Part shown: piece after piece, positions 1 to 18,782 of the stretch
Layout: each line of letters begins with the position of its first letter
Position numbering within the stretch: the stretch's first letter is position 1
Origin: Spirochaetia bacterium
Lineage (GTDB): Bacteria; Spirochaetota; Spirochaetia; UBA9216
Direction: 5' to 3'
Assembly: GCA_965140585.1 (NCBI GenBank)
Contig: OZ223269.1
Location: forward strand, 576,001-640,000
Length of the DNA stretch: 64,000 nt
The notes under the pieces: generated by a model
Databases searched by the model: none
Seen by the model: the letters and a program-made list of their open reading frames with translations, nothing else
Told to the model about the DNA's origin: nothing
Made by a program: the position numbers and the translations under genes

Positions 1-1331
1 CTGCCGCACAGAAAAAACTGGAAACATGCTCACAGAAATACATAGATGAAATCGTGAAAGCTATTGCAAAAACTGTTTTTGACAATGCGGAAGTTCTGGC
101 AAGCATGGCGGTTGATGAAACCTCCATGGGTATTTACGGCGATAAAGTCGAAAAGAACCGCCGAACTGCAAGTATGCTCTGGCACAGTCTCAAGGGGAAA
201 AAGTCTGTAGGGGCTGTGGAAGAAGATGCGGTAAACGGAATCATAAAAATAGCAAAACCAATGGGTGTTGTGGGAGCGGTAACCCCCTGTACCAATCCAA
301 TAACAACACCTATGTGTATTGCAATGTTTGCCGTGAAGGCGCGTAATTCTATAATCATCGCTCCTCATCCGCGTGCACGAAAATGCGCCGCATATACTGC
401 TGAACTTATCAATATGAACCTTAAGACTCTTGGGGCACCCGAAAATCTTATACAGACAATAGAAGATCCTAATGTGCTTAAAAGCAGAGAGCTTATGAGC
501 TCAGTTGATGTTGTTGTAGCCATCGGAGGCTCGGCCACAGTTAAAGCTGCATATTCCTGCGGTAAACCTGCATTCGGTGTCGGCGCAGGAAATGCGCAGT
601 GCATTATTGACAGGGGAGTCTGTATAAGCGAATCGGTTGAGAAAATAATAAATGGAAGAATCTTTGACAACGGAATTATCAGTTCTGCTGAGCAAATGAT
701 TCTCGTTCATAACGATGACTTTGCTGAAACAGTAAAAGAGCTTGAGTCTCAGGGTGCATACTTCGTCAGAAATTCTGATGAAGCTTTAAAACTCAGGAAT
801 CTGATTTTTGATGAAGAAGGAAATGTTTCAAAAGAAGTAGTCGGCCAGCCTGTATCAAAGCTTGCTTATGATGCAGGTATTGAGCTTGAAGATAATGTTC
901 GGCTTATAGTTATTGAAGTTTACGGCGCTGGAGAAGAGGAACTTTTCTGCAGAGAAAAGCTGTTTCCGGTAATTGGCCTTAAAAGATACGAAACCTTTGA
1001 AGAGGCAGTTGCAATCGCGGCTGAGAATATAGAAGCTGAAGGTATGGGGCATTCAGTAGTTATACATTCCGGAAATGATGAACATATCAGATATGCCGGT
1101 GAGAACCTGAACGTAAGCCGGCTTCTTGTGAATCAGGTCGGGGCTACCATGAGTGGCGGAAGCTATCTGAACGGCCTTGTTCCCACAACTATCTTCGGAT
1201 GCGGTACATGGGGGAACAATATTATCTCTGATAATTTTAATTACACACACTTGATGAATATTACACGAATTTCAACAGTGATAGATGGAGTTGTAATGCC
1301 CTCGGAAGAGGAGATCTGGGCTGATGTTTGA
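1..1331 (+). CDS. CoA-acylating aldehyde dehydrogenase family protein (SucD/EutE/AdhE-N-like), 5' partial
   Basis: Frame open from base 3 (AAQKKLETCSQKYIDEIVKAIAK); motifs PMGVVGAVTPCTNP, RNSIIIAPHP, GVGAGN, FDNGIISSAEQ, EKLFPV, GHS, GCGTWGNN. Catalytic Cys position reads Ser. Confidence 0.88.
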   Translation, partial: AAQKKLETCSQKYIDEIVKAIAKTVFDNAEVLASMAVDETSMGIYGDKVEKNRRTASMLWHSLKGKKSVGAVEEDAVNGIIKIAKPMGVVGAVTPCTNPITTPMCIAMFAVKARNSIIIAPHPRARKCAAYTAELINMNLKTLGAPENLIQTIEDPNVLKSRELMSSVDVVVAIGGSATVKAAYSCGKPAFGVGAGNAQCIIDRGVCISESVEKIINGRIFDNGIISSAEQMILVHNDDFAETVKELESQGAYFVRNSDEALKLRNLIFDEEGNVSKEVVGQPVSKLAYDAGIELEDNVRLIVIEVYGAGEEELFCREKLFPVIGLKRYETFEEAVAIAAENIEAEGMGHSVVIHSGNDEHIRYAGENLNVSRLLVNQVGATMSGGSYLNGLVPTTIFGCGTWGNNIISDNFNYTHLMNITRISTVIDGVVMPSEEEIWADV

Positions 1332-2589
1332 GCTTAAATACGGCAGAAAAACTATCTCTGTTGATATACCTGAAAAAAATTATGTGGGAACGCTGATTCC
1401 CAATGAAATTGTACATAACAGAAGCGGCTTTGATGAAATAAATAATGCCCTTGATAATCCGGCAGGAACAGAAAGACTTGAGGAAATAGTTAAGCCTGGT
1501 GAGTCTGTAGTGATTGTTACAAGTGATATTACAAGGCCCTTTCCCGGGAGACTGGTTATACCGGAACTTGTTAAACGGCTTCACAGTGCAGGAGTCCGTG
1601 ACAGTGATATAACCATTGTTTTTGCACTCGGCAGTCACCGCAGTCATACTGAAGATGAAAAGAAATATCTGGCCGGTGAAGAAGTTTATTCAAGCGGAAT
1701 AAATCTGCTTGATTCCGAAATGAACTGCTGCATCAATCTCGGGGTGTGCAGGAACGGAACGCCTGTAGATATATTCAGGCCGGTAGCGGAAGCAGACAGA
1801 CTGATATGCGTGGGGAATATTGAATTTCACTATTTCGCAGGTTATTCCGGCGGGGCCAAAGCTTTGATGCCCGGAGTGTCAAGTCACGCAGCTATACAGG
1901 TCAACCATTCGAATATGACGAATAAAAATGCTGCAGCGGGCAGGCTTGATGATAATCCTGTCAGACAGGATATAGATCAGGTTGGTGAGTTTATCAAAAT
2001 TGATTTTATTCTGAACGTGATTCTTGATAATAAGAAAGAGATCGTTAAAGCAGTTGCAGGTCATTATCTTGAAGCTCACAGAAACGGCTGCAGGTATCTC
2101 GACCGGATGAACGGTGTTGAGCTTGCTTCAAAGGCTGATATTGTAATTGCATCTCCGGGGGGATATCCGAAAGATATAAATCTTTATCAGGCTCAAAAGG
2201 GACTTGACAATGCCAAATATGCTGTGGAAGACGGCGGCATAATTATTCTTGCAGCTTCAGCTGCAGAGGGTTTTGGCGAGAAAACCTTTGAATCATGGAT
2301 GAAGAATAAAAAACCATCAGAAATGCTGGTTGAAATTGAATCCAATTTTGTACTCGGAGGTCACAAGGCTGCCGCTATCTCCATGATATTGCAGAAGGCG
2401 GAAATATTCATGGTCAGTGATCTGGATGATGAAATTGTGAAGTCTATTAACTTCGTCCCTTTTAGTTCGCTGCAGGCTGCACTCGATGAGGCTGTCGGTA
2501 GAATTAGTGAGAAAGCTTCAGTGCTTTTGATGCCCGATGCAGGAGCTACAATACCATTACTGAAGGATGTCAGTGAAGATAAAGGTTAA
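1324..2589 (+). CDS. larA: Nickel-pincer-dependent lactate racemase (LarA) family 2-hydroxyacid racemase/epimerase
   Basis: SDITRP, ALGSHR, FHYFAGYSGGAK, NHS, GGYPKDINLYQAQK motifs; overlaps upstream stop. Confidence 0.88.
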   Translation: MFELKYGRKTISVDIPEKNYVGTLIPNEIVHNRSGFDEINNALDNPAGTERLEEIVKPGESVVIVTSDITRPFPGRLVIPELVKRLHSAGVRDSDITIVFALGSHRSHTEDEKKYLAGEEVYSSGINLLDSEMNCCINLGVCRNGTPVDIFRPVAEADRLICVGNIEFHYFAGYSGGAKALMPGVSSHAAIQVNHSNMTNKNAAAGRLDDNPVRQDIDQVGEFIKIDFILNVILDNKKEIVKAVAGHYLEAHRNGCRYLDRMNGVELASKADIVIASPGGYPKDINLYQAQKGLDNAKYAVEDGGIIILAASAAEGFGEKTFESWMKNKKPSEMLVEIESNFVLGGHKAAAISMILQKAEIFMVSDLDDEIVKSINFVPFSSLQAALDEAVGRISEKASVLLMPDAGATIPLLKDVSEDKG

Positions 2590-2812
2590 GCTTTATTCAT
2601 TTTTTGTATTCCTTTCCGGAAACAGGGAGGGAACTATGGAAATAGAAACAGATGATACTTTTTCTGTTCAGGAACTGCTTATGAAATGTGGTGTAAAAAA
2701 AGATTATACCGCTTTAATCAGAGTAAACGGTTTAAACAGAAATATTAACGATACAGATATTTTATCTGATGGAGACTTCGTGGAAGTTTTTCCGGTTTTT
2801 GGCGGTGGATGA
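2567..2812 (+). CDS. MoaD/ThiS family sulfur-carrier protein
   Basis: 81 aa, VNG...LSDGDFVEVFPVFGGG C-terminus; directly before an AOR gene. Confidence 0.85.
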   Translation: MSVKIKVKLYSFFVFLSGNREGTMEIETDDTFSVQELLMKCGVKKDYTALIRVNGLNRNINDTDILSDGDFVEVFPVFGGG

Positions 2813-4734
2813 TTTTTATGATGGAAGAAAATATGATTTACGGATATACGGGAAAGATACTCAGAGTTAATCTGAGTACTTCAGATATAACTATAGAAAC
2901 CCCAGATCAGACATTTTACAGGATGTATATGGGTGGAAAGGGGATTATTGCTCATTATCTATTAAATGAAGTATCTCCTGAAGCTGATGCCCTGGGTGTT
3001 GAAAATAAATTGATTTTTGCCACAGGTGTTCTAACAGGCATACCGATAGCAGGTACACCGAGGTATACCGTAGGTGCAAAATCTCCACTTACCGGCGGTT
3101 TCGGCCAGTCGGAAGCGGGCGGTTTCTGGGGACCTGAACTTAAAAAGGCCGGATGGGATGCTGTTATTATAGAAGGAAAAGCAGAGAAACCGGTTTATCT
3201 AAGTATTACTGACTCTGATATTCAAATTAATGATGCAGCGGAGCTCTGGGGAAAAGAAACCGGAACTGTTCAGCAGCTGATCCGGAATGAGCTGGGAGAG
3301 CAGAAAACCTCAGTTCTCCAGATTGGTCCTGCAGGTGAAAATCTGGTTAAGTACGCCTGTATTACAAATAATCTTAAACATTATAACGGCCGTAATGGAA
3401 TGGGTGCCGTTATGGGTTCGAAGAATCTCAGGGCAATTGCAGTGAAGGGAAGCGGTGAAATAAAAACCGCAAATCCTGAAAAGATATCTGAATTAAGAAA
3501 AGAATATCTTGCTGTTTACAAGAATGAACCCTTAAGCCGTGGACTGTTTGACTATGGCACATCAGGCGGAATATCCACGCTTAACGCGGCAGGAATGTTT
3601 CCGTCAAGAAATTTTAAATACGGTGAGAATCAACACGCTGAAGAGATAACAGGGCAGAAACTTGCCGAGACTATCATGAGCAAGCGGGAGGGCTGTTTTG
3701 CATGTCCGGTTAGATGTAAGCGTGTGGTAGATGTCAACGAAGAATCACTATCAATTGATCCAGCTTTCGGCGGTCCTGAATATGAAACAATCGCAGGATT
3801 CGGCGCCAACTGCATGATGGCCGAACTCAAACTTATATCGAAGGCCAATGAGCTTTGTAACCGCTTCGGTATGGATACTATCTCAGTTAGTGGAACTATT
3901 GCTTTTGCAATGGAATGTTTTGAAAACGGATTGATTGATACAGAATTTACCAACGGACTTAGGCTCGAATTCGGAAACTCCTATGCAGTATTAACTCTTC
4001 TTGAAAGAATAGCTCTGCGGGCCGATAACTTTTCTTCCCTGCTTGCTGAAGGATCGTTTAGAGCTGCTGAGAAGATAGGTAAGGGAAGTGAAGTGTATCT
4101 GAATACAAGCAGAAAACAGGAGTATGCACTTCACGATGCCCGGACTAAAACCGGCCTTGCATTTGCATATTCAACAGCCGCCAATGCTACAGACCATATG
4201 TATATAGTACATGACACTATGATATCCAATCCTGGAATAGTTCTTGATAAACTCAGCGGGATCGGGATTTACGAACCCATAAGTCCTTCCGAAGTGTCCT
4301 GGAAAAAAGCACGTAATGTAAAAACCGTATCGGAATGGACCAGCTTTCAGAACTGTGCAGGGATGTGCATCCTTGTATTTGCTCCCCGCGGGGTAATAAG
4401 CCTTAACACAGTTGTTGAGCTTTTAAGAGCTGCAACAGGGTGGGAATACACAAGCCTTTACGAAATTATGAAAGCCGGAGAACGTGCTGAGAATATGGGA
4501 CGGGCATTTAACATATTGCACGGTTCTGCTTCAAGTGAAGATAATCTTTCACAGCGGAGTCATGAAGATCTGGCGAATGAACATTCAAATTATTATGCGG
4601 TAGATAAAAAAAATCTGGCCGACGGCATAAAAGATCTTTTTGAGATGAGAGGTTGGGATGAAAAAGGAATTCCATCCAGGGGCAAACTGTATGATTTAAA
4701 CCTCGGCTGGCTGGCAGAAAAGCTTCATGCATGA
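2809..4734 (+). CDS. aor: Aldehyde:ferredoxin oxidoreductase (tungstopterin AOR family)
   Basis: YGYTGKILRVNLS, KSPLTGG, GRNGMGAVMGSKNL, CFACPVRC, GPEYET, GMDTIS, RGWDEKGIP; true start may be ATG 2833. Confidence 0.92.
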   Translation: MIFMMEENMIYGYTGKILRVNLSTSDITIETPDQTFYRMYMGGKGIIAHYLLNEVSPEADALGVENKLIFATGVLTGIPIAGTPRYTVGAKSPLTGGFGQSEAGGFWGPELKKAGWDAVIIEGKAEKPVYLSITDSDIQINDAAELWGKETGTVQQLIRNELGEQKTSVLQIGPAGENLVKYACITNNLKHYNGRNGMGAVMGSKNLRAIAVKGSGEIKTANPEKISELRKEYLAVYKNEPLSRGLFDYGTSGGISTLNAAGMFPSRNFKYGENQHAEEITGQKLAETIMSKREGCFACPVRCKRVVDVNEESLSIDPAFGGPEYETIAGFGANCMMAELKLISKANELCNRFGMDTISVSGTIAFAMECFENGLIDTEFTNGLRLEFGNSYAVLTLLERIALRADNFSSLLAEGSFRAAEKIGKGSEVYLNTSRKQEYALHDARTKTGLAFAYSTAANATDHMYIVHDTMISNPGIVLDKLSGIGIYEPISPSEVSWKKARNVKTVSEWTSFQNCAGMCILVFAPRGVISLNTVVELLRAATGWEYTSLYEIMKAGERAENMGRAFNILHGSASSEDNLSQRSHEDLANEHSNYYAVDKKNLADGIKDLFEMRGWDEKGIPSRGKLYDLNLGWLAEKLHA

Positions 4735-4839
4735 GCAGATGATATAACGACCCTATAAAAGGAGGAGAAAAACGGAACTTAAAAATTAGGAAACAGAAGT
4801 ATTAACTTTTTTTAATAAATTTACTTGGAGGAATACAAG

Positions 4840-5940
4840 ATGAAGAAAAAAAATATTTTATTTGCAGCATTGGTTGCAACAGCATTGATTTTCAGCGGTT
4901 GTGTGAAGGCAAAAGTTGAAACAGCAACAACTGAAGGTGCTGAAACCAAAGCAGCTGGTGAAACTCTGTCAATAACCAACTTTATTACAGCAGAATCAGA
5001 TAATCCGGACAAAATTGTCCTTAGATACGCTTCAACAAGCCGAAATCTTGATGATCACCCTTATATGAGAGGTTTCAAGAAATTCTTTGAGGTTCTTAAA
5101 ACAGAACTCGGAGATAAAGTAGAAATTCAGTACTACCTTGGCGGAACACTTGGTACAAGTACCGATGCTATCCTCGGTGGTCTTCAGAATGAATCTTTTG
5201 AAATGACCGACTGGCCTCTTGGAAGTTTTGCCGAGCTTACAAACGCTTTTCAGCCCTTTGATGTTCCTTACCTTTTCACTTCTATGGATAATGCCATGGA
5301 CCTTCTTGGCGGTGAAGTAGGTGACATAATGACTGAGAAATGTCTTGAAGATACAAACCTCAGACCTCTTTACTATGCTCCTATCGGCATGAGGCAGCTT
5401 ACAAACAGTAAGAATGCCGTTAAGACTCCCGATGACATGAAGGGTCTGAAGATTAGAGTTCAGAACAATCCTCTTCATATTGCCGGAATGAAGGCTCTCG
5501 GCTGTTCACCGACCCCGATTTCTTTTGGCGAGCTGTTTACTTCACTTCAGCAGAAGGTTGTTGATGGTCAGGAAAATCCGCTTTCAACTATCTATGACTA
5601 CAAGTTTGCAGAAGTTCAGAAGTACCTTACTATCACTAACCACCTCTCGGCAGTTGGAACAATGGCTGTAAACGAAGATTACTACCAGAGCCTTCCTTCT
5701 GATGTAAAGGCTGCATTTGACAAGGCTTCAGCTGCAGCAGCTGCTTTTACTCTAAACGAAGTAAAGAACGCAGAGGCAGAATACCTTCTCAAGCTTAAGG
5801 GAATTCTTGAAGTTTATGAACCTTCAGAAGCTGAACTGAAAGTATTTCAGGAAAAGGCAATGACTGCTTGGCCCGAAATGGAAGAGTCAATCGGTGTTGA
5901 ATATTTCGGCAGCATTATTACTGCAGCCGGACTTAAATAG
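4840..5940 (+). CDS. dctP: TRAP transporter substrate-binding lipoprotein DctP
   Basis: Lipobox IFSGC; GMRQLTN, DMKGLKIRV, ELFTSLQQKVVDGQENP; GGAGG RBS before ATG 4840. Confidence 0.92.
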   Translation: MKKKNILFAALVATALIFSGCVKAKVETATTEGAETKAAGETLSITNFITAESDNPDKIVLRYASTSRNLDDHPYMRGFKKFFEVLKTELGDKVEIQYYLGGTLGTSTDAILGGLQNESFEMTDWPLGSFAELTNAFQPFDVPYLFTSMDNAMDLLGGEVGDIMTEKCLEDTNLRPLYYAPIGMRQLTNSKNAVKTPDDMKGLKIRVQNNPLHIAGMKALGCSPTPISFGELFTSLQQKVVDGQENPLSTIYDYKFAEVQKYLTITNHLSAVGTMAVNEDYYQSLPSDVKAAFDKASAAAAAFTLNEVKNAEAEYLLKLKGILEVYEPSEAELKVFQEKAMTAWPEMEESIGVEYFGSIITAAGLK

Positions 5941-5949
5941 ATTATTGAA

Positions 5950-5972
5950 GCCGGCAGGATATTCCTGCCGGC
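5950..5972 (+). other. Intra-operon stem-loop after dctP (mRNA stabiliser or partial terminator)
   Basis: GCCGGCAGG-ATATT-CCTGCCGGC perfect 9-bp stem without a U-tract. Confidence 0.6.
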
Positions 5973-6004
5973 ATATGTTTGAGAATTAAGAACAGGAGAA
6001 TCTT

Positions 6005-6496
6005 GTGAAAAGATTAAAATGGTTTTTAGGGAATATTGAGTATATAGTAGCCGCATCTTTTTCTGCTGTAATGGTAGTTCTGCTGTTCCTTCAGGTTGTT
6101 TCACGATATGTATTCAGAAACTCAATTTCTTTTACTGAAGAAATTGCAATAGTACTTTTTATTTTATCAGTTTACCTGGGTGCCGTAGGGGCAACCAGAA
6201 GAAGACAGCATTTAAAGATAGAAGTAGTTACAAATTTATTAAAACCGAAAGCACAGACTGTTTTGGCTGTAATTGCCAATATAGTTTTTATGATAACAAA
6301 TGTTTTTATTATTTACGGACTGATAGGCGTTGTGGCAAATCTTAAAAGATTCGGAATGACTACTGCAATAACAGAAATCCCGAAGTGGGCGATTTATTCG
6401 GTTCTGCCGATTTCGTTCGCTGCAATTACTATTCGTCTGATTGAGGATACAGTGAAGATTATCCGTGAATCTAAAACAGGGCTGCAGGAGAGTTAA
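6005..6496 (+). CDS. dctQ: TRAP transporter small permease DctQ
   Basis: QVVSRY, FTEE, HLKIE motifs; 4 hydrophobic segments; GTG start after AGGAG. Confidence 0.9.
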   Translation: MKRLKWFLGNIEYIVAASFSAVMVVLLFLQVVSRYVFRNSISFTEEIAIVLFILSVYLGAVGATRRRQHLKIEVVTNLLKPKAQTVLAVIANIVFMITNVFIIYGLIGVVANLKRFGMTTAITEIPKWAIYSVLPISFAAITIRLIEDTVKIIRESKTGLQES

Positions 6497-7777
6497 ATGG
6501 AAACTATGGTACTTGCCGGCCTGGCAGTTCTTTTTCTGGTAATAGGGGTTCCGATAGGAATCTGTTTCGCAATAGGAATGATATCAGTCGCATTTCTTTT
6601 TGATGTGACAAGTTTGAAGTTTATAGCCCAGTCGATGTACTCAGGACTGGATTCGCTTCCGCTGCTTGCCGTTCCCTGCTTTATTCTTGCAGGCGCTATT
6701 ATGGAAAAGGGCGGACTCTCAAGGAGGCTTATTAATGCTGCAAATAAATTCAGCGGCGGAACAACAGGCGGACTGGGGACAGTAGTAATTCTTGCCTGTC
6801 TGTTCTTCGGGGCGATATCAGGGTCAGCACCCGCCACTGTAGCTGCAATTGGAACCATAATGATTCCGCATATGCAGAAAGCCGGATACGATCGGACCTG
6901 GTCCACGGGCCTTGTAGCTGTATCAGGGAGCCTTGGGGTAATCGTTCCGCCAAGTATACCGCTGGTTGTCTACGGCTGCGCGACGAACACATCAATCGGA
7001 GATCTTTTTCTGGCAGGCGTTGTTCCAGCAATTGTGGAAGCCGGTGTATTGATTGTAATAGCTAAAATAGTTTCCTGGAAAAAGGGGTACAAGGGCAGCG
7101 GTGAAAAATCATCGGTGAAAGAAATTCTTTCCGCCTTATGGGAAGCCAAGTGGGCTCTGATAATGCCGGTAATTATTCTTGGAGGAATTTACGGAGGAAT
7201 ATTCACTCCGACTGAAGCGGCGGTAGTTGCCATCGTCTATGGAATTATTATAGGAATGTTTGTTCATAAGGAACTTAAGTGGAAGGATCTGCTTAAAATC
7301 TTTAATGAAAACGCTTCATTTATCGGCGGTATCATGCTGACTTTTGCCCCGGCTGCGGCTTTGGGCGGAGTGCTTGCAATGCTTGGAATACCGGGAATGA
7401 TAAGTGATCTGCTGCTTTCAGTAACGGACAATCTGATTGTAATTCTATTGATAATTAACGTCTTTCTGCTTCTCGCAGGAATGGTTCTTGATACCATGTC
7501 TGCAATAATTGTATTCGCTCCTATTCTACTTGCGGTTCTTCAGCCTCTGGGGATAGATCCTATACATCTTGGAATAATGATGACTGTTAATCTTGAAGTC
7601 GGGTTTGTTACACCTCCTGTTGCGCTGAATCTATTTGTAGCCTCGGGAATGACAGGAATCCCAATGGATAAAATAGTTTCGAAGGCGCTGCCTTTTATTA
7701 TTGGACTTTTAATAACACTTCTTGTTATTACATTTGTGCCCGGGCTTAGCTCCGGCGTTGTAGAACTTTTAAAATAA
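6497..7777 (+). CDS. dctM: TRAP transporter large permease DctM
   Basis: LLAVPCFILAG, FGAISGSAPA, IVPPSIP, GIFTPTEAA, TPPVALNLF. Confidence 0.93.
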   Translation: METMVLAGLAVLFLVIGVPIGICFAIGMISVAFLFDVTSLKFIAQSMYSGLDSLPLLAVPCFILAGAIMEKGGLSRRLINAANKFSGGTTGGLGTVVILACLFFGAISGSAPATVAAIGTIMIPHMQKAGYDRTWSTGLVAVSGSLGVIVPPSIPLVVYGCATNTSIGDLFLAGVVPAIVEAGVLIVIAKIVSWKKGYKGSGEKSSVKEILSALWEAKWALIMPVIILGGIYGGIFTPTEAAVVAIVYGIIIGMFVHKELKWKDLLKIFNENASFIGGIMLTFAPAAALGGVLAMLGIPGMISDLLLSVTDNLIVILLIINVFLLLAGMVLDTMSAIIVFAPILLAVLQPLGIDPIHLGIMMTVNLEVGFVTPPVALNLFVASGMTGIPMDKIVSKALPFIIGLLITLLVITFVPGLSSGVVELLK

Positions 7778-7787
7778 GGATTATTTA

Positions 7788-8441: not shown

Positions 8442-8455
8442 AACAGGAAACTAAA

Positions 8456-9613: not shown

Positions 9614-9634
9614 GATTTTACGGAGAATAATATT

Positions 9635-10459
9635 ATGAAGAAAAAAATGCCCGTAATGCTTACCTTTGATGTCGACGGAGAATCACTCTGGGCTTCCCGT
9701 GAGCTTGATCACCTTCCGGTTACACGCTCTCTGGGAACGTACGGTATTGTTGAGGGGCTTCCGAGAATAATGAAAGTTCTTGAAAGAAACGAAGTCCCGG
9801 CAACATTCTTTGTTCCCGGAATTATTGCTGAAAGGTATCCTGAGCAGATAAAGAAAATAGATACAGCCGGACATGAGATATGCAACCACAGCTACAGCCA
9901 TACATATCCGGACAAACTTCCTTCTGCTGATGCAGAAAAGGAAGAGCTTACAAAGACGAACGCGATACTTGAAAAGCTTACCGGAAAGACGCCTAAAGGA
10001 TATCGCTCTCCTGCGTGGGAGTTCAGTGAGAATACTCTGGATATCCTTCTTGATATAGGATTTGAGTATTCAAGCAACATGATGCATACAGATCGAATAG
10101 GATATCTGCAGGTGTTTGAGCGTAAGACTGATATCGTTGAACTTCCAATTCACTGGGTACTTGATGATGCTGCCTTCTGGCTGTACACAGTAAGGATTCC
10201 CGGAAAAGCGATACAGCCGGTTTCCGCTGTGCAGGAATTCTGGATTGCTGAATTTGATGCGCTTTATGAAGAGTTTATGGAAGAGGAAAATTCAGACATC
10301 TGTTTCATACTTACCTGCCATCCACAGGTGATCGGACGGCCTGCAAGAATGAAAGTTCTGGACAATCTTATTAAACATATAAAAACATTTGAGAATGTTG
10401 AATTTACTACATGCTGGCAGACAGCAGAGAAGTATAAAAAAGAGGGGACTGATGAGTAA
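9635..10459 (+). CDS. CE4 polysaccharide-deacetylase family amidohydrolase (PuuE/HpPgdA-like, cytoplasmic)
   Basis: TFDVD, NHSYSH, GYRSP, ELPxxWxLDD, HPQVIGRP; no signal peptide. Confidence 0.85.
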   Translation: MKKKMPVMLTFDVDGESLWASRELDHLPVTRSLGTYGIVEGLPRIMKVLERNEVPATFFVPGIIAERYPEQIKKIDTAGHEICNHSYSHTYPDKLPSADAEKEELTKTNAILEKLTGKTPKGYRSPAWEFSENTLDILLDIGFEYSSNMMHTDRIGYLQVFERKTDIVELPIHWVLDDAAFWLYTVRIPGKAIQPVSAVQEFWIAEFDALYEEFMEEENSDICFILTCHPQVIGRPARMKVLDNLIKHIKTFENVEFTTCWQTAEKYKKEGTDE

Positions 10460-11207
10460 AAATAATGCTGTTCTGCAGCTTTATCCGACAACCAAGCTGT
10501 ATCTCGCCCTGCTGATAGCTGTGTCTTCAGTAATTATTCCGAGCTACATTTATGCCTATTCCTGCTTTCTGATTGCAGCGGTAATTGCTGCAATGGCAGG
10601 CTGTCTGAGGGATTACCTTAAATTCTCCAGGAAATCTATTCTGATTCTGGTAATCCTGATTCTGGTAATGCAGATGTTCTTTTATCCGGGTGTGGATGAG
10701 GTATGGAGAAAGGGAATTTTCCGAATCACAAATGAAGGAATCCAGTTCGGGTTCAAGATGTCTTCGAGGGTTCTTGCGATAGCATGTTCTTTCGTTCTCT
10801 TTTTTAGAATTACTGAAGTAAAAGACTTTGTGCTTGCACTTGAGCAGAATGGATTTTCACCCACTGCAACCTATGTCATCCTGGCTACTCTGCAGATGAT
10901 TCCTGAAATGAAAAAACAGTCAACGGTTATCATGGATGCCCAGAGGGCAAGAGGTGTTGAAACCGAAGGCAGTCTGATGGTCAGAGTAAAGGCTTTTATT
11001 CCGATGCTTGGACCGCTTGTTCTTTCATCGATAGCCAATACCGAAGAAAGAGCTATCACTCTTGAATCACGGGCTTTTACCGCACCGGTTAAGAAAACTA
11101 GAATTCATAAAATCGAACTTACCAGGGCTGACAAGCCTCTCAAAGTTATCATGCTTATTATTCTTATAGGACTTATCGCAGGGAGGATTGCATTATGGCT
11201 CTTATAG
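10452..11207 (+). CDS. ecfT: ECF transporter transmembrane T component
   Basis: P-x-TKL start, AQRARG and LESRAF Arg motifs; ATG 10452 after GAGGGG. Confidence 0.9.
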   Translation: MSKNNAVLQLYPTTKLYLALLIAVSSVIIPSYIYAYSCFLIAAVIAAMAGCLRDYLKFSRKSILILVILILVMQMFFYPGVDEVWRKGIFRITNEGIQFGFKMSSRVLAIACSFVLFFRITEVKDFVLALEQNGFSPTATYVILATLQMIPEMKKQSTVIMDAQRARGVETEGSLMVRVKAFIPMLGPLVLSSIANTEERAITLESRAFTAPVKKTRIHKIELTRADKPLKVIMLIILIGLIAGRIALWLL

Positions 11208-12055
11208 AAGTTAAAAACCTGTCTTATAAATATCCGACCAGTAAAGGCGATGTTCTCAAGAACCTCAATTTTTCAATTGAAAAAGGCGAGTTCTGCTCAA
11301 TAATTGGATGCAACGGAAGCGGTAAAACAACACTGTGCAGTGCGTTAAGGGGATTTGTACCCAATTTTTACAAGGGTGAGCTGAACGGTCACATCATCCT
11401 GGACGGGCAGGATATGAGTGAGCTGAGCATGGGTGAGCTTGCTATGAAAATCGGCTATGTATTTCAGAATCCATTTATTCAGATCAGCGGTATTAAAAGT
11501 ACAGTTTTTGAAGAAGTAGCATACGGACTTGAGAATCTTGGTGTTGATCCGGAGGAGATTAATACACGTGTAGAAAAGATGTTCGAGTTCCTGCAGATTG
11601 AATATTTAAAAGACAAAGATCCCTTTGCTCTTTCCGGCGGACAAAAGCAGCGTGTAGCGCTTGCTTCCATCCTTGTAATGGAACCTGATGTTCTTGTAAT
11701 TGACGAACCCACCTCACAGCTTGATCCAATCGGAACCGAAGAGGTATTTCAGACTATCAAGCTTATGAAAGAAATGGGTAAAACAATCATACTTGTTGAA
11801 CACAAGATTGAGCTGGTTGCTGAGTACTCTGATCATATTATTCTTCTTGATGATGGCGAGATTGTAATGGACGGACCTGCTAAGGCTGTTCTTTCAAATG
11901 AGAAAGTTCTTGAGCATAATACTGCCATCCCACAGTTTGCACAGCTTTGTCTTGCGCTCAAAAACAGCGGTCTGCCTGTAGATGATATAGCGATCACGGA
12001 AGATGAATGCATAAACGTGATGGAAAAAATACTGACAAAAGAGGCTGTACTGTGA
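11195..12055 (+). CDS. ecfA: ECF transporter ATPase (A1)
   Basis: GCNGSGKT, VFQNP, LSGGQKQR, IDEPTSQLDP, VEH. Confidence 0.92.
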   Translation: MALIEVKNLSYKYPTSKGDVLKNLNFSIEKGEFCSIIGCNGSGKTTLCSALRGFVPNFYKGELNGHIILDGQDMSELSMGELAMKIGYVFQNPFIQISGIKSTVFEEVAYGLENLGVDPEEINTRVEKMFEFLQIEYLKDKDPFALSGGQKQRVALASILVMEPDVLVIDEPTSQLDPIGTEEVFQTIKLMKEMGKTIILVEHKIELVAEYSDHIILLDDGEIVMDGPAKAVLSNEKVLEHNTAIPQFAQLCLALKNSGLPVDDIAITEDECINVMEKILTKEAVL

Positions 12056-12873
12056 GTTTTATTGAACTGAAGAATGTAACTTTTACATATCCAAATGATT
12101 TTACTGCGATTGAGAATATAAATCTTGAAATAGCCAAAGGTGAATTCCTGGCAATAGTCGGTCAGAACGGAGCAGGGAAGACAACTACTGTTAAGCTGAT
12201 GAATGGACTTTTAAAACCGCAGGAAGGAGAAGTCATTATTGACGGATGGAACACTAACGATCATACAGTTGCTAAGCTTTCCTCAAAAGTAGGGTATATC
12301 TTTCAGAATCCGGATGAGCAGATTTTTAACGATTCAATTTACAGTGAAGTTGCATTTGGTCCAAAGTATATGAAACTTCCGATTGAAGAGATTAAGAATC
12401 GAGTACGGACAGCTGTTGATGTTACAAAAATACGCCCGTATTTAAATGAAAATCCATATAACCTGCCTTATTCTACAAGAAAGTTTGTAACAATTGCCGC
12501 AATTATGGCGAATGACCCGGATGTACTCATCCTTGATGAACCGACTGCCGGCCAGGACCTCTATGGTATGGAAGTTCTGGCAGATGTCTTAAAGTTTCTC
12601 AAGGAGCAGGGGAAGACTGTCATAACCATTACACATGATATGGAGTTCGTTGTAAAGAATTTTGAAAGGGTGGTCGTAATGGCCAACAAGAAAATCATTT
12701 CAGATTCCGATCGTAGAACAACCTTCTGGAACCATGATGTTTTAAAGCAGAGTATGCTAAAGCAGCCCTATGTCAGCAGAGTCGCCTATCGAATGGGTCT
12801 GTCCGGTAATGTTCTTGATGTTAATGAAATGATCAGTGCTGTTAAAACTGAAACAGGATTAAAGGAAGCATAA
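12052..12873 (+). CDS. ecfA: ECF transporter ATPase (A2)
   Basis: GQNGAGKT, IFQNPDEQIF, LDEPTAGQD, ITHDMEF; signature degenerate (LPYSTRK); GTG start overlapping upstream TGA. Confidence 0.9.
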   Translation: MSFIELKNVTFTYPNDFTAIENINLEIAKGEFLAIVGQNGAGKTTTVKLMNGLLKPQEGEVIIDGWNTNDHTVAKLSSKVGYIFQNPDEQIFNDSIYSEVAFGPKYMKLPIEEIKNRVRTAVDVTKIRPYLNENPYNLPYSTRKFVTIAAIMANDPDVLILDEPTAGQDLYGMEVLADVLKFLKEQGKTVITITHDMEFVVKNFERVVVMANKKIISDSDRRTTFWNHDVLKQSMLKQPYVSRVAYRMGLSGNVLDVNEMISAVKTETGLKEA

Positions 12874-13820
12874 TGGCAACACCGATAATTTTTGACTGTG
12901 ATCCGGGACATGATGATGCTGTAGCATTATTCATAGCTCTGGCAAATGATGCTATAGAAGTTAAAGGTATAACTACCTGTGCAGGTAATCAGCTTCCTGA
13001 AAAAACTTTTAACAACGCAAGAAAACTTCTGGCGCTTGCTGAAAGGGAAGATATTACCGTATGCCCCGGTGCTGAAAAACCGCTGACAAGGAACCTCCGG
13101 ATAGCTGCTGATATTCACGGTGATTCAGGGCTTGACGGAGCCGAACTTCCTGAACCGACCGTGGCAGAGTTTAAGGGAAAATCCTGGGACTTTACTGCAG
13201 ATATTATACGGAATCATCCGGAACCAATTACTCTGGTTGCAACCGGTCCGCTTACTAATGTCGCTATTTTTCTTCTTGCTTATCCGGAATTAAAAGAAAA
13301 ACTTGAACGGATAATCATTATGGGCGGTGCCTGCTTTGGAGGGAATATCACTCCGGCTGCAGAGTTTAATATTCTTGTAGATCCTGAAGCGGCTGATATT
13401 GTTTTCAAAAGCGGTGTAAAAGTTTCAATGTTCGGACTTGATGTTACAAACCGGGCCAGTATGATGCCTGATGAAATTAAGTCACTCCGGAACCTTGGTA
13501 CAAAATCCGGAGAAATATTCGCCGGTCTACTTGATTTCTTTATCACCAAGGCTACCAGATATTTTCTGGCGGATAAGGACTGGGTAGAAGGTGTACACCT
13601 TCATGATGCCTGCTGCATGGCTTATATTGTCGATCCTTCAATCTTTAGAATGGTTGACTGCCATGTTGAAATAGATACAAACGACGGACCGACTCTGGGC
13701 AGTACAGTTGTTGATTTCAACGGTGTAACAAAAAAGCCTGCAAATGCAGAAGTAGCTTTTAAAATTGACAGAGATAAGTTTATAGGTCTGGTTATAAAAT
13801 CGATAGCCAAATTCAATTAG
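12873..13820 (+). CDS. Inosine/uridine-preferring nucleoside hydrolase (Rih family)
   Basis: DCDPGHDD Ca-binding motif, IHGDSGL, TGPLTN, AEFNILVDPEAA, LHD. Confidence 0.92.
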   Translation: MATPIIFDCDPGHDDAVALFIALANDAIEVKGITTCAGNQLPEKTFNNARKLLALAEREDITVCPGAEKPLTRNLRIAADIHGDSGLDGAELPEPTVAEFKGKSWDFTADIIRNHPEPITLVATGPLTNVAIFLLAYPELKEKLERIIIMGGACFGGNITPAAEFNILVDPEAADIVFKSGVKVSMFGLDVTNRASMMPDEIKSLRNLGTKSGEIFAGLLDFFITKATRYFLADKDWVEGVHLHDACCMAYIVDPSIFRMVDCHVEIDTNDGPTLGSTVVDFNGVTKKPANAEVAFKIDRDKFIGLVIKSIAKFN

Positions 13821-13874
13821 TCATGGTTATAAATGTCCATACGGGGCATTAAATATATAACAAGGAGAAATTAA

Positions 13875-14498
13875 ATGGAAAAGAAAAGAAGTTTCAAGGA
13901 TGACTTCACCCTGGTTTCACTGCTGCTTATTCCAGTATGTGTTGCTATCAACATTGTAGGATTTCAGCTTGCCCAGCTGCTGAGACTCCCTGTGTTTCTT
14001 GATGTAATCGGAACAATACTAGTAGGTATTGTTGCCGGTCCCTGGATTGCTATCATTACCGGTTTTCTGACCAATGCTATCAATGCAATTTTTAATCCTG
14101 TATACCTGCCTTACTCAGTTGTAAACATGGCAATCGGTATCTTCGCTGCTCTGCTTTCTGCCAAAGGCATGATGGGCAAATGGTGGAAGATTGGTATTTC
14201 AGGTGTAATTATCGCTCTTGTAGCTACATGTACTGCCGCTCCCATCACTGTAATACTTTTTGGTGGAATGACAGGACATGCAACTTCAATGATTACTGCT
14301 GGATTCCTCGCTACAGGAACCAAGATCTGGACTGCTGTATTTTCTACCCACTTTATTACTGAAAGCGCAGACAAGATTCTCAGTCTCATTGTTGCTGTTC
14401 TTATTGTTAAAAGAATATCCAGCAGATACCTGTCAAAACTTAAATACGGTGAACAGTATATTAAGGAAGATAAAGTCGCTGAAGCTGCAGATATTTAA
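13875..14498 (+). CDS. ECF transporter substrate-specific S component
   Basis: About 6 hydrophobic helices, AIN...LRLPVFLDVIGT...AGPW signature, ADK near C-terminus; clustered with ecfT/A/A. Confidence 0.85.
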   Translation: MEKKRSFKDDFTLVSLLLIPVCVAINIVGFQLAQLLRLPVFLDVIGTILVGIVAGPWIAIITGFLTNAINAIFNPVYLPYSVVNMAIGIFAALLSAKGMMGKWWKIGISGVIIALVATCTAAPITVILFGGMTGHATSMITAGFLATGTKIWTAVFSTHFITESADKILSLIVAVLIVKRISSRYLSKLKYGEQYIKEDKVAEAADI

Positions 14499-14513
14499 TC
14501 TGCCGGATATTAT

Positions 14514-14548
14514 TAGACTGGTATTCAGCTGTAACTGAATACCGGCTA
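14514..14548 (+). terminator. Stem-loop after the ECF S gene
   Basis: CTGGTATTCAG-CTGTAA-CTGAATACCGG inverted repeat; weak U-tract. Confidence 0.5.
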
Positions 14549-14604
14549 ATAATTTATAACCATTCAAGTCTCTAATCAAGATTTAAATTGTAAATTGGAC
14601 AAAT

Positions 14605-15786
14605 ATGAAACAATTTTCTACACTTCTTAAAACATGGCCGGCTTCAGGTATACGTGAAATGCTTGATATGTACCGGCAATATCCGGATGCCGTTAATATG
14701 TGTAACGGGGATCCGGATCTGCCTACTCCTGAACATATAGTGGAGGCAGCTGTAAAATCACTTCGGGACGGAAATACCCAATATTCCACGGAATCCGGAA
14801 TTGTTGAGCTGCGGGAAGCTGTAGCTGCAAAGTATGTTAATCAGTTCGGTTTCGATTTTACTCCCGAGAATGTCATGGCTACTGCAGGCAGCATCGAAGC
14901 AATGTTTATTATTCTTGCAGGGATTCTTGACAGCGGAGATGAGGTAATAGTTTCAGATCCCAGCTACACCAGCTATGAAGGGCAGGTAAGAATGTTCGGC
15001 GGCCGTGTTGTTCGTGTCAAAGCTCCTGCTGAAAACGGGTTTTTGATGAATCCTGAGGAAATTGCCGAAAAAATAACCGGGAAAACTCGGGCGGTAATAC
15101 TTAATTATCCAAATAATCCATCAGGTACGCTTATCGATAACGAATATTGTGATAGGCTGGCAAACGCACTTGAAGGCCGCGATGTTCTGATTATTTCGGA
15201 TGAAGTATATGAAAAGATAGTCTTCGACGGAAAAACTCATTACAGTCCTATGCAGCATCCGCAATTAAAAGAAAAGGTTTTGATAGCAAACAGTCTTTCT
15301 AAAACCTATGCAATGACCGGTTGGCGGCTTGGATATATTCTTGGAAGCGGTAATTTAGTTTCAGGATTTTATAAAATGCAGCAGGCTCTTATCTCATGTC
15401 TGCCGATATTTGTACAGCATGCCGGTGTTGCCGCACTTAATGGTTCCCAGGATTGTGTTGAGCAGATGCGCAGGGAATACGAGCGCCGGCGAAATATTAT
15501 CTGTAATAAATTCGACTCCATCGAAAATCTTGATTATATTAAGTCCGGAGGCTCACTCGGAATAATGGCTGATATTAGAAAAACAGGAATCAGTTCGAGA
15601 GACTTTTCATTGAAACTGCTTTCGGAAGGCGGTGTCCTGACAGTTCCGGGTACTGCATTCGGTAAGGGAGCAGAAGGCTGGATAAGACTTGCTTTTGCAA
15701 ATTCAGCAGAAACCATGACTGCAGGGGCTGAAAGGTTTTCAGAATATTTTAACAACAATTTGAACTTCAGGGGTAATGATGCATAA
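14605..15786 (+). CDS. PLP-dependent aminotransferase class I/II
   Basis: GDPDL, NYPNNPSG, SDEVYE, NSLSKTYAMTGWRLGY, VPGTAFG, IRL. Confidence 0.92.
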   Translation: MKQFSTLLKTWPASGIREMLDMYRQYPDAVNMCNGDPDLPTPEHIVEAAVKSLRDGNTQYSTESGIVELREAVAAKYVNQFGFDFTPENVMATAGSIEAMFIILAGILDSGDEVIVSDPSYTSYEGQVRMFGGRVVRVKAPAENGFLMNPEEIAEKITGKTRAVILNYPNNPSGTLIDNEYCDRLANALEGRDVLIISDEVYEKIVFDGKTHYSPMQHPQLKEKVLIANSLSKTYAMTGWRLGYILGSGNLVSGFYKMQQALISCLPIFVQHAGVAALNGSQDCVEQMRREYERRRNIICNKFDSIENLDYIKSGGSLGIMADIRKTGISSRDFSLKLLSEGGVLTVPGTAFGKGAEGWIRLAFANSAETMTAGAERFSEYFNNNLNFRGNDA

Positions 15787-16732
15787 CAAACCGGTAGTGG
15801 TATTTACATTTCCCTATGGAAAGGAAAACTTCCTTAAAATAGAGCAGGAAGGTTATGAAGTCGTATATATTAATGAAGAAAAGATGACAGGAGATGAAAT
15901 GCCTGAAAATACTGAAGTTCTTGTATGCTATGATCCATTTGCTAAAGTAGATATAAGTAAACTTGATAAGTTGAAGTTTATTCAATTGGTCAGTAAAGGA
16001 ATCAACCAGGCTCCCCGTGAAAAAATAAAGAATGCAGGTATTATTGTTGCGAATAACGGCAACGCAACATCTATTCCAATTGCTGAATGGATTATCACAA
16101 TGATACTTATGCTGCTTAAGAATTCTTCATTCATATATAAAAATATGAATGATAAAATATGGAATGAAGACCGGAATATATCCGAGCTTGCAGGTAAGAG
16201 AGTAATCATCCTTGGGACAGGCGGAATTGCAATTGAAGCTGCCTCAAGACTGAAAGCTTTCGGAGTTGAAATTACAGGGATTAATAGGAGCGGAAGAGCT
16301 GTTGCCGGTTTTAATCGATGCTGCAGTCTGGATCAGTTTAATAATCTTCTTCCTGAATGTGATATTCTTGTTTCTGCTATTCCTGCGACTTCCGAGACTA
16401 AAAATCTTATTAACAAGAAAACACTGTCGCTATTGAAGAAAGATGCCTGCTTTATAAATATTTCCAGAGGTTCAGTAGTAAATGAGGATGATCTGATTGA
16501 GAAGCTCAACGACGGCTCGCTTAGAGGTGCCTCTCTAGATGTATTTAAACAGGAACCGCTGTCTTCAGACAGTCCATTATGGGATGCTGCTAATATTATA
16601 ATCACACCTCACAATTCTTACCTGTCAGATGCCTATCGAAATAGGGTATTTGAAGTAATATTTAAAAATCTAAAAAAATACAAGTCCGGAAAAACGCTTG
16701 ATTTTGTAGTTGACTTTGAAAAAGGCTACTAG
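15776..16732 (+). CDS. D-isomer-specific 2-hydroxyacid dehydrogenase
   Basis: ILGTGGIA Rossmann motif, NISRG, DVFKQEPL, ITPHNS. Confidence 0.9.
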   Translation: MMHNKPVVVFTFPYGKENFLKIEQEGYEVVYINEEKMTGDEMPENTEVLVCYDPFAKVDISKLDKLKFIQLVSKGINQAPREKIKNAGIIVANNGNATSIPIAEWIITMILMLLKNSSFIYKNMNDKIWNEDRNISELAGKRVIILGTGGIAIEAASRLKAFGVEITGINRSGRAVAGFNRCCSLDQFNNLLPECDILVSAIPATSETKNLINKKTLSLLKKDACFINISRGSVVNEDDLIEKLNDGSLRGASLDVFKQEPLSSDSPLWDAANIIITPHNSYLSDAYRNRVFEVIFKNLKKYKSGKTLDFVVDFEKGY

Positions 16733-17224: not shown

Positions 17225-17412
17225 TATATATTATTTAAAATAAAATCAACTAATATTTAGAATTCTAAATAAAAGTAAGCATATTCGCTAATATAACACT
17301 TGTGTAAATCGATGTATATTATTAACTTATATATAATGATATTGAAAATGATATCTGCAATTGTTTATAGATATAAATAAATAATTATATTTTATTAAGT
17401 TTAGGAGATAAT

Positions 17413-18768: not shown

Positions 18769-18782
18769 TAAACTGGGGAAAG

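Follow-up and report, generated by a model that had tools for sequence, protein, structure and literature searches.

A putative sigma-54-controlled catabolic operon of modular build in a Spirochaetia bacterium, with a conserved CE4-Isf gene pairing at its core

Introduction

Reductive pyrimidine catabolism employs dihydropyrimidine dehydrogenase (DPD), dihydropyrimidinase, beta-ureidopropionase, beta-alanine aminotransferase and malonate-semialdehyde dehydrogenase, and the aerobic ectoine route employs a hydrolase, a deacetylase, a class-III transaminase and an aldehyde dehydrogenase together with TRAP uptake. Here we describe a gene cluster that invites comparison with both. It lies in a 64,000-nucleotide stretch of a Spirochaetia bacterium genome (G000:C6:576001-640000, G000 being the host genome; the whole stretch is called the window below), and its 17 open reading frames (ORFs) at window positions 1-16732 include a metal-dependent amidohydrolase of the CE4 family and an iron-sulfur flavoprotein resembling Isf. 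Single parts of the cluster come close to further described systems. According to PMC7583248 and PMC11770544, nickel-pincer-type racemases of the LarAH6/Mar2 family racemise malate, with a minor side activity on tartrate, and in PMC11130926 QrtT, of queuosine salvage, is placed under PF12822. The initial annotation of this DNA, made from the letters alone, did not recognise the combination of genes as a described pathway, and no description of the gene cluster or of the CE4-Isf pairing was found in the literature searched, which took in few subscription journals and no supplements.

Results

An 18-gene operon behind a predicted sigma-54 promoter

Profile searches with Pfam and NCBIfam were carried out on the 17 ORFs, all of which lie on the plus strand of the window. 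The results matched every family that the initial annotation had named, namely TRAP, ECF, Rih, M20, CE4, aminotransferase, D-2-hydroxyacid dehydrogenase (HADH), LarA, aldehyde:ferredoxin oxidoreductase (AOR) with MoaD, acylating aldehyde dehydrogenase (ALDH) and Isf (Table 1). Its picture of 17 co-oriented, mostly overlapping or abutting genes was borne out by the ORF coordinates, and its placing of the two amide hydrolases, M20 and CE4, in the cytoplasm agrees with the lack of a signal peptide on either of them; the nucleoside hydrolase Rih carries none as well. All 17 genes are present, but the unit is larger than described; both the sigma-54 control and an upstream GabT-like class-III aminotransferase (AT3) had been overlooked. 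The operon starts with AT3, 1.4 kb 5′ of the window, and comprises 18 genes from AT3 to HADH, whose 17 junctions consist of eight overlaps, five gaps of 0-21 nt and four gaps of 54-106 nt. The first gene of the window is truncated by its edge: ALDH begins 40 nt upstream and is preceded by a 19-nt gap to AT3. Terminator-like sites are not enriched (16 found against 14.0 +/- 4.0 expected). At the 3′ end, an 87-nt gap is followed by a bacteriohemerythrin gene and then by a sucrose-phosphate-synthase/phosphatase-like pair, which are outside the unit as counted.

A PAS-domain sigma-54 activator is encoded divergently from AT3, and the intergenic region between the two genes spans 273 nt. A predicted −24/−12 element of correct spacing, TGGCA(C/T)-N5-(T/A/G)TGCA, was located about 50 nt upstream of AT3 in four of the four spirochaete loci compared, i.e., in the host genome, in the same-genus genome G001, and in the loci L017 and L018. 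The same element stands upstream of CE4 in two distant metagenomic loci, L038 and L028, and in L038 a sigma-54 activator adjoins. Sigma-54 itself is encoded in the host genome (rpoN DNA-binding domain, 191.5 bits). These elements suggest that the divergent activator would switch on the whole 18-gene operon. Another sigma-54-like match, at window 8402-8417 inside the Isf gene, was rejected as a promoter, since L017 and L018 have no such match at this position and chance alone predicts 3.8 matches per window.

In G001, every operon gene was found in the same order at 85-100% protein identity, which indicates that the arrangement is not a matter of chance. Taken as a single unit on the strength of gene order and promoter, the cluster appears to be a real, conserved and modular sigma-54 catabolic operon. 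Taken singly, its enzymes belong to known families and are ordinary; the novelty lies in how they are combined, in their sigma-54 control and, most of all, in the conserved CE4-Isf pairing.

Conserved core and optional modules in spirochaete relatives

The records nearest to the host bear the labels Spirochaetia bacterium, Oceanispirochaeta sp. and Spirochaetales bacterium. In an Oceanispirochaeta metagenome-assembled genome (L017), the divergent activator is followed by AT3-ALDH-Isf-M20-CE4-EcfT-A-A′-Rih-S-AT1-HADH, in which AT1 is an aspartate-aminotransferase-like enzyme, and the six genes from Mar to DctM (the malate racemase Mar, MoaD, AOR and DctPQM) are lacking. A third genus (L018, which equals L008, of genome G010) shows the activator followed by AT3-ALDH-Mar-MoaD-AOR-DctPQM-Isf-M20-CE4 and, 58 nt on, a HADH-like gene before the contig ends; no ECF, Rih, S or AT1 gene lies between CE4 and the HADH-like gene there. 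Thus AT3, ALDH, Isf, M20, CE4 and a HADH are constant in all spirochaete loci compared, Mar-MoaD-AOR-TRAP and ECF-Rih-S-AT1 are optional, and the window holds both optional modules. Because each module is absent from one relative and the constant core is kept, the operon is modular. The CE4 search of the sampled Spirochaetota hit one of 401 genomes, namely G000 itself, so that the cluster is patchy within the phylum, and a scan of genome contigs with M20 gave three loci only.

Since the modules come and go independently between genera and each is sensible alone, the operon might be viewed as a co-transcribed mosaic of functionally separate units under a shared promoter, comprising GabT and SucD enzymes for the use of 4-aminobutyrate (GABA), Mar, AOR and TRAP for D-malate or an aldehyde, Isf-M20-CE4 for an amide, ECF with Rih for nucleoside salvage (for instance of the queuosine type, or to scavenge ribose), and a pair converting an amino acid to a hydroxy acid. 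The 54-106-nt gaps coincide with the module borders, as such a mosaic would predict. For the salvage unit, a dedicated ECF importer with an IU-family nucleoside hydrolase is a known queuosine-salvage architecture (PMC11130926); tgt is present in the host genome and queC was not found there above cut-off, so that the organism probably salvages a queuosine precursor. However, a QPTR/YhhQ-type carrier of queuosine precursors is already encoded elsewhere in the genome, and the sugar kinase that follows ECF-Rih in L026 fits catabolism. The mosaic is further opposed by the single conserved sigma-54 promoter and activator ahead of the whole set in all four spirochaete loci, the sole internal match being unconserved, and by the insertion of modules between core genes inside the operon instead of at its end. 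Moreover, a TRAP homologue (49-62% identity) lies between CE4 and Isf in gut-metagenome loci that have neither Mar nor AOR. On balance, we regard the mosaic as unlikely; a queuosine-type salvage role of ECF-Rih is possible.

The CE4-Isf pairing in metagenomes

The CE4 protein has 1152 homologues at E <= 1e-20, without an informative name. A metagenome scan with CE4 yielded 80 loci, of which those of at least 6 kb were used for neighbor counts, with the clade defined by at least 45% identity. In the tree, the 28 CE4 sequences that reach this threshold grouped with 100/100 support, separate from 7 outgroup rows, and the subclades follow gene context. Among the 17 clade loci, which include near-duplicates and represent about 10-11 distinct ones, an Isf homologue (36-68% identity) was found near CE4 in 15 and an M20 in 12, followed by an AT1 homologue (7), TRAP at 49-62% identity (3), AT3 (2) and Rih with ECF-S (1); each of these counts is zero among the 24 outgroup loci.

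Several arrangements recur. In the first, a sigma-54 activator is followed by CE4, AT1, a Na:alanine-family carrier, Isf, a P-loop protein, a VorB-like 2-oxoacid:ferredoxin oxidoreductase, butyrate kinase, PduL and a CPG2-like M20, and one such locus adds an alanine-dehydrogenase-like gene (by N-terminal sequence only). Contigs labelled as human-gut metagenome carry oxidoreductase-CE4-DctPQM-Isf-M20. Others show M20-CE4-Isf-sodium:solute symporter, or a LysR or IclR regulator followed by CE4-AT1, a LIV-type ABC or alanine-family carrier, and Isf. A further arrangement reads PucR-M20-polar-amino-acid ABC-M20-AT3-AT1-CE4, continued in L026, whose CE4 is labelled Treponema sp., by EcfS-T-A-A′-Rih-PfkB kinase. 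The importer at the CE4-Isf core thus varies among TRAP (49-62% identity), AGCS, LIV-type or polar-amino-acid ABC, SSF and ECF systems, and the core stays; CE4-Isf(-M20) is a conserved core with interchangeable importers. By contig label, the clade occurs in human-gut, peat-like and fermenter metagenomes among others. The conserved P-loop protein mentioned above, of 225-233 aa with a GxxGxGKT-type motif and no Pfam match, was seen between the Isf and VorB-like genes in three loci.

Features of the core enzymes

The four cysteines of the Isf-like protein given in Table 1 are invariant in 8 sequences. Its structural model (pLDDT 72, with the cysteine loop below 50) resembles PnpB/WrbA (Z about 20) and flavone reductase 7d38 (Z 17.4), and no solved archetypal Isf was among the structural matches listed. 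We take 7d38 to be an ene-reductase acting on a heterocycle. In CE4, residues D12, D14, H85, H89, R124, D177/D178 and H229 are invariant in 31 sequences, and we presume that they correspond to the named CE4 motifs (the Asp-His-His metal triad and the catalytic motifs). The CE4 model (pLDDT 90) matched 3rxz and 3qbu with TM scores of 0.87-0.89 and PuuE with 0.83, placing it in the subgroup of HP0310, the M. smegmatis protein and PuuE. A complex prediction for CE4 with Isf, run with two alignments, scored 0.00 and gave no verdict, so it is counted neither way.

It was also observed that CE4 is 93% identical between the window (9635-10459) and the other genus G010 (L008 490-1296), where the neighboring genes are 60-86% identical. 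Constraint of unusual strength, or else a recent exchange affecting this single gene, could account for the difference.

Genes at the head of the operon

AT3 scored 474 bits with the GABA transaminase family and 247.7 bits, against a cut-off of 401.6, with the diaminobutyrate transaminase model TIGR00709. The best solved relative of ALDH is 8cei, an acetylating succinate-semialdehyde dehydrogenase (E 2.5e-140, 471 bits; the next match has 296 bits). Since AT3 and ALDH both stay under every NCBIfam equivalog cut-off, the amino acid that they handle could be GABA, beta-alanine or a hydroxy- or amino-substituted C4 compound. Mar is similar to Mar2 over its full length (PDB 6d6z, E 8.6e-118, residues 3-417 aligned), and both AFOR domains of AOR are full length (AFOR_N 1-198/199; AFOR_C 2-385/385). 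The initial annotation was therefore correct in naming an acylating aldehyde dehydrogenase and a LarA protein, but had overlooked the probable SucD type of the former and the malate-racemase identity of the latter. The chain that it proposed, from aminotransferase through a 2-oxoacid and a D-2-hydroxyacid dehydrogenase to a racemase, is plausible, and malate as the racemase substrate points to aspartate and oxaloacetate.

In other spirochaetes, a paralogous Mar (47-54% identity) was seen in a separate operon (L014 17-12674, also L010 and L011), which encodes ALDH, Zn-ADH, acylating ALDH, an SucCD-like ligase, acetoin-type E1/E2, Mar, malic enzyme and SDR. Its gene content suggests a separate route that may end in D-/L-malate. 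Because this paralogous Mar adjoins acylating ALDH, the SucCD-like ligase and malic enzyme, ALDH and Mar recur together.

The C4 chemistry indicated by Mar, the SucD relative of ALDH and the small-acid-binding TRAP relatives also suits the catabolism of ectoine or hydroxyectoine, or of another N-acetylated C4 diamino or omega-amino acid such as N-acetyl-2,4-diaminobutyrate or N-acetyl-GABA. CE4 and M20 would then cut the ring or the acetamide bonds, the GabT-like enzyme with SucD-type ALDH or AOR would convert the omega-amino group to a carboxyl or a CoA ester, the aspartate aminotransferase, D-2-hydroxyacid dehydrogenase and Mar would lead from aspartate to malate, TRAP would import the compound, and ECF-Rih would be a passenger. 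The M20 belongs with the ArgE/DapE deacylases, every motif of the deacetylase set is present in CE4, and in L025 and L026 a polar-amino-acid ABC transporter, two M20s, AT3, AT1 and CE4 form a compact group that lacks Isf. The host likewise looks marine and osmoadapted, judging from its Oceanispirochaeta relatives and the adjoining sucrose-phosphate synthase/phosphatase-like pair. Yet although AT3 does score 247.7 bits with the diaminobutyrate family, it scores higher for GABA transaminase (474 bits versus 248 against a cut-off of 402), and the Pfam search revealed no M24 (DoeA-type) or AstE/AspA-type protein in the cluster. Such a route would leave no role for Isf, which accompanies CE4 more constantly than any other partner (15 of 17 loci), or for ECF-Rih, which is inside the operon in three genomes, and the CE4 clade also occurs in human-gut, peat-like and fermenter contigs, where ectoine is not an obvious nutrient. 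These points make it improbable that the operon serves ectoine-type catabolism.

Importers, nucleoside hydrolase and operon tail

A complete TRAP set, DctP, DctQ and DctM, is encoded side by side, and DctP and DctM also exceed NCBIfam subfamily cut-offs. Among solved structures, DctP is nearest to 4p47 and to binding proteins for pantoate, erythronate, KDG and isethionate, which is not decisive for its ligand. In the ECF unit, the longest EcfT ORF overlaps CE4 by 71 nt, and the ATG at 10452 is the likelier start. The neighbors of the S component in an Atlas search are ECF S components (score 0.96), which bears on its class only. Rih scored 381.7 bits with the RihA model NF007761 against a cut-off of 433 and matched RihA in PDB 4wr2 (E 1.6e-90); its best NCBIfam matches are RihA, RihC and UriH, with none to a QueK-specific model. 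All NCBIfam matches of AT1 are under cut-off (best, GntC 320/415 and archaeal AspAT 320/550), and the solved relatives of HADH are PDB 3hg7 (E 3.4e-44) and phenylpyruvate reductase 8hpg (E 1.6e-37).

ECF-Rih-S follows CE4 directly in the window, G001 and L017, and in L026 a diverged ECF-Rih set (29-41% identity, in another order) follows CE4 and is itself followed by the PfkB sugar kinase. A nucleoside hydrolase with its own importer is inserted beside the CE4-Isf core in spirochaetes, and among the loci examined ECF and Rih occur beside CE4, M20 and AT3 in spirochaete lineages only. The link between Rih/ECF and the amidohydrolases that the initial annotation had drawn is supported at these four places, but it appears in only one of the 17 long metagenomic loci; likewise, the gene order is kept in G001, but across other genera the neighborhood is modular and not one fixed 17-gene pathway.

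The same annotation had suggested that the cluster may degrade a nucleoside or nucleobase carrying an amino-acid or acyl modification, with tRNA-turnover products such as t6A, acp3U or ac4C as candidates. A nucleoside hydrolase and dedicated importer beside two amide hydrolases and two aminotransferases do agree with this idea, and on paper acp3U could yield beta-alanine and diaminobutyrate after reduction and opening of its base, using every enzyme. Nevertheless, none of the analyses gave support for a modified nucleoside, such nucleosides are scarce for an 18-gene energy pathway that contains AOR, Rih is nearest to the ordinary pyrimidine hydrolase RihA, and the same CE4-Isf core is served elsewhere by TRAP, AGCS, LIV or polar-amino-acid ABC and SSF carriers, i.e., by carriers of carboxylate or amino-acid type. 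We consider this origin of the substrate very unlikely.

Neighboring genes and coordinates

The positions of the features are listed in Table 1. Downstream of the operon (window 16820-20855), the bacteriohemerythrin is followed by a GT4 glycosyltransferase whose N-terminus is of the sucrose-synthase type and by a sucrose-6F-phosphate phosphohydrolase fused to an invertase/GDE-like domain, and this gene set looks like a putative sucrose osmolyte module. The hemerythrin gene adjoins the operon in G001 too. Two genes of unusual architecture were seen on the minus strand upstream of an RND efflux set: one encodes a fusion of an HMGL-like with a dCache sensor domain (L005 4088-5935), and the other an HTH_3 regulator with a B12-binding domain (L005 6048-6971).

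Table 1. Positions of the operon genes, regulatory features and related genes. Plain numbers are window positions; L005 coordinates belong to the locus that reaches upstream of window base 1.
Feature	Position	Strand	Evidence
Divergent PAS/sigma-54 activator	L005 12648-14318	minus	Sigma54_activat 226.5 bits, AAA_lid_14, HTH_50, PAS_9
Sigma-54 −24/−12 promoter element (predicted)	L005 14542-14557		~50 nt upstream of AT3 start; correct spacing
AT3, GabT-like class-III aminotransferase	L005 14592-15941 (1408 to 59 nt upstream of window base 1)	+	Aminotran_3 E 5.4e-115; PDB 4ffc (GabT) E 2.5e-103
ALDH, putative SucD-type CoA-acylating aldehyde dehydrogenase, 3′ 1331 nt of gene (full 456 aa)	1-1331	+	Pfam Aldedh
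Mar, nickel-pincer-type malate racemase (LarAH6/Mar2 family)	1324-2589	+	NF052593 544.3 bits vs cut-off 500
LarA homologues of G000	1324-2589; C7:659966-661195; C1:135082-136344; C9:240964-242241		
MoaD/ThiS-like small protein	2567-2812	+	PF02597 26.3 bits vs cut-off 22.5; C-terminus ...VFPVFGGG
AOR (tungsto/molybdopterin family)	2809-4734	+	AFOR_N 257.7 bits, AFOR_C 347.8 bits
DctP, TRAP solute-binding lipoprotein	4825-5940	+	PF03480 233.8 bits; lipobox-like N-terminus ending ...FSGC
G+C-rich hairpin directly 3′ of dctP	5950-5972	+	10 pairs, 8 G-C, weak T tail
DctQ, TRAP small permease	6005-6496	+	PF04290 107.1 bits
DctM, TRAP large permease	6497-7777	+	PF06808 373.8 bits
Isf-like iron-sulfur flavoprotein, FMN_red fold	7788-8441	+	PF03358 102.9 bits; C51/C54/C57/C69
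M20 metallohydrolase, ArgE/DapE deacylase subfamily	8456-9613	+	TIGR01910 288.9 bits vs cut-off 217.6
CE4, cytoplasmic metal-dependent amidohydrolase, HP0310/PuuE structural subgroup	9635-10459	+	PF01522 88.8 bits
EcfT, ECF transporter T component	10389-11207	+	PF02361 75.3 bits
ECF ATPase A	11195-12055	+	ABC_tran 104.1 bits; TIGR04520 246.8 bits, under cut-off 315
ECF ATPase A′	12007-12873	+	ABC_tran 97 bits; TIGR04521 232.4 bits, under cut-off 330
Rih, RihA-like ribonucleoside hydrolase	12873-13820	+	PF01156 330.3 bits; DxDxxxDD motif, FDCDPGHDD
ECF S component	13875-14498	+	PF12822 27.7 bits (cut-off 30.7); NF045596 (CD3073 family) 113.2 bits (cut-off 180)
AT1, class-I AspAT-like aminotransferase	14605-15786	+	PF00155 215.1 bits
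HADH, D-isomer-specific 2-hydroxyacid dehydrogenase	15776-16732	+	PF02826 175.5 bits
Dihydropyrimidinase/D-hydantoinase equivalog, stand-alone	26626-28005	minus	515.7 vs 393 bits
Second dihydropyrimidinase	G000:C6:755217-756590		Near DHO_dh gene and carbamoylase-type M20
tgt	G000:C6:1189195-1190283		
QPTR/YhhQ-type carrier	G000:C6:198936-199421		
P-loop protein of metagenomic loci	L038 14466-15143; L028 14354-15037; L033 18271-18972		

Discussion

Proposed pathway and substrate class

The gene content can be arranged into a general scheme in which one operon would provide for uptake, reduction, two hydrolyses and transamination, leading to succinyl-CoA or succinate and to malate; we assign it a probability of roughly 0.45. 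In this scheme, the ECF transporter would import a ribonucleoside, from which the RihA-like hydrolase would free ribose and the aglycone, the families being plain from the profile matches and the substrates being what we infer from them. Alternatively, TRAP might bring in a free carboxylate form. The Isf-like flavoprotein, whose gene is co-located with CE4, may then reduce the compound by an ene-type reduction of a heterocycle or enamide, CE4 may open or deacylate the reduced compound, and M20 may strip the remaining N-acyl or carbamoyl group, so freeing amino acids. On the omega-amino branch, for which the homology is strong, the GabT-like AT3 would produce a semialdehyde, to be converted to an acyl-CoA (succinyl-CoA or its malonyl analogue) by the SucD-type ALDH or, alternatively, to an acid by AOR with reduction of ferredoxin. 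On the alpha-amino branch, the AspAT-like AT1 would turn aspartate into its 2-oxo acid, oxaloacetate, which HADH could reduce to D-malate and Mar could convert to L-malate.

As the substrate class we tentatively favor a pyrimidine-type ring, uridine/uracil- or orotidine/orotate-like, which is possible though short of probable. It is preferred because it explains the RihA-like enzyme, the reductase and the PuuE-fold ring hydrolase together; uracil-like rings would feed the omega branch, and orotate-like rings would feed the aspartate/malate branch and fit a carboxylate importer. A still wider proposal, which we regard as doubtful, is that Isf, CE4 and M20 might form a new route that reduces, opens and deacylates N-heterocyclic or enamide compounds, as a non-homologous replacement of the classical dihydropyrimidine trio. 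This route would be widespread in anaerobes, including those of human-gut-labelled contigs, with a new nucleoside-specific ECF importer supplying it in spirochaetes. Also considered, but set aside because no analysis supported them, were pantothenate, allantoin, dipicolinate, nicotinate riboside, hydroxamate siderophores, N-acetylated polyamines and peptidoglycan fragments; each explains some of the genes, and none explains the CE4-Isf pair together with Rih.

A number of observations weigh against the scheme or its pyrimidine version. No analysis here identified a substrate. Canonical pyrimidine genes are present elsewhere in the genome, namely two dihydropyrimidinase equivalogs, two carbamoylase-type M20s and four genes of the DHO_dh family, so that a further pathway for uracil would in part be redundant. 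The dihydropyrimidinase gene of the window itself has an unannotated 237-aa ORF and small unannotated ORFs as neighbors; an IclR-type regulator and a KDG-kinase-like gene lie a few kb off, and FeoB is on the other side. The M20 of the operon scored only 33 bits with the carbamoylase model TIGR01879 (cut-off 204). By its nearest relative, a succinate-semialdehyde enzyme, ALDH would be better suited to GABA (C4) than to beta-alanine (C3). Orotate covers AT1, HADH, Mar and TRAP but not AT3, ALDH and AOR, uracil does the reverse, and only a mixed substrate range covers all. At most CE4-Isf loci, the amino-acid-type carriers and the VorB-like, butyrate kinase and PduL genes suggest an aliphatic alpha-amino acid as the product. 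The clade counts shrink when near-duplicates are set aside, and the Rih-containing loci, all being spirochaetal, may share descent, so that their recurrence is not independent.

The racemase step meets a further difficulty. Searches for LarB, LarC and LarE gave nothing above cut-off in G000 or in the three relatives G001, G010 and G007 (96-99% complete), although they exceeded cut-off in 5-6 of 14 control genomes. For LarC, PF01969 gave 0/1 genome and TIGR00299 0/4 genomes, and the best scores were 36 bits against 150 for LarE and 40 bits against 175 for LarB. For Mar, these negatives on nickel-pincer cofactor supply bear on function and not on homology. The same genomes encode several LarA homologues (four in G000, three in G001, four in G010 and five in G007), and the analysis accordingly raises the question of how LarA-type racemases in these spirochaetes obtain their cofactor where no LarBCE is detected. 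Should the proposed route prove true, two large and poorly annotated families, the cytoplasmic CE4 "polysaccharide deacetylases" and the Isf-like flavoproteins, would gain new functions, and sediments, digesters and the gut would gain an added anaerobic route for nitrogen-rich ring and amide compounds.

Comparison with known systems

Among the enzymes with a described counterpart, Mar agrees with Mar2/LarAH6 in exceeding the equivalog cut-off and in its full-length similarity. Its context differs: here it stands with AOR, TRAP and aminotransferases, whereas the Mar2 assignment (PMC7583248, PMC11770544) was guided by a malic-enzyme context. The first two genes of the operon are closest to GabT and SucD (4ffc and 8cei), which would convert 4-aminobutyrate to succinyl-CoA, but both are under the NCBIfam equivalog cut-offs, and here they head an 18-gene operon. 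With the QrtT/QueT-QueK systems of queuosine salvage (PMC11130926), the locus shares the pairing of ECF importer genes with a gene for an IU-family nucleoside hydrolase. In contrast to those systems, its S component is under the PF12822 cut-off (27.7 versus 30.7) and nearest to the uncharacterised CD3073 family, its hydrolase is nearest to RihA, and the unit is embedded in a sigma-54 catabolic operon, with a sugar kinase following in L026.

Compared with the reductive pyrimidine pathway, the scheme proposed here would share release of the base, flavin/Fe-S ring reduction, a ring-opening amidohydrolase, removal of an N-acyl or carbamoyl group by a metallohydrolase, class-III transamination and CoA-acylating aldehyde oxidation. 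The three ring enzymes, however, are not homologous, with Isf standing in for a PreT/PreA-type DPD, CE4 for a dihydropyrimidinase of the amidohydrolase superfamily and an ArgE/DapE-type M20 for the carbamoylase; none of these three canonical types was matched by a cluster protein in Pfam or NCBIfam. The ectoine Doe/Eut route resembles the operon in its hydrolase with deacetylase, its class-III transaminase, its aldehyde dehydrogenase toward aspartate, and import by TRAP or a polar-amino-acid ABC transporter. It differs in that neither the M24 ectoine hydrolase nor the AstE/AspA-type deacetylase family of Pfam occurs in the cluster, AT3 stays under the TIGR00709 cut-off (247.7 versus 401.6), and ALDH is probably of the CoA-acylating SucD type; Isf, AOR, the malate racemase and the ECF-nucleoside-hydrolase unit are extra here. 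Lacking the defining enzymes of both, the cluster belongs to neither the canonical reductive pyrimidine nor the Doe/Eut pathway, but it could work like either.

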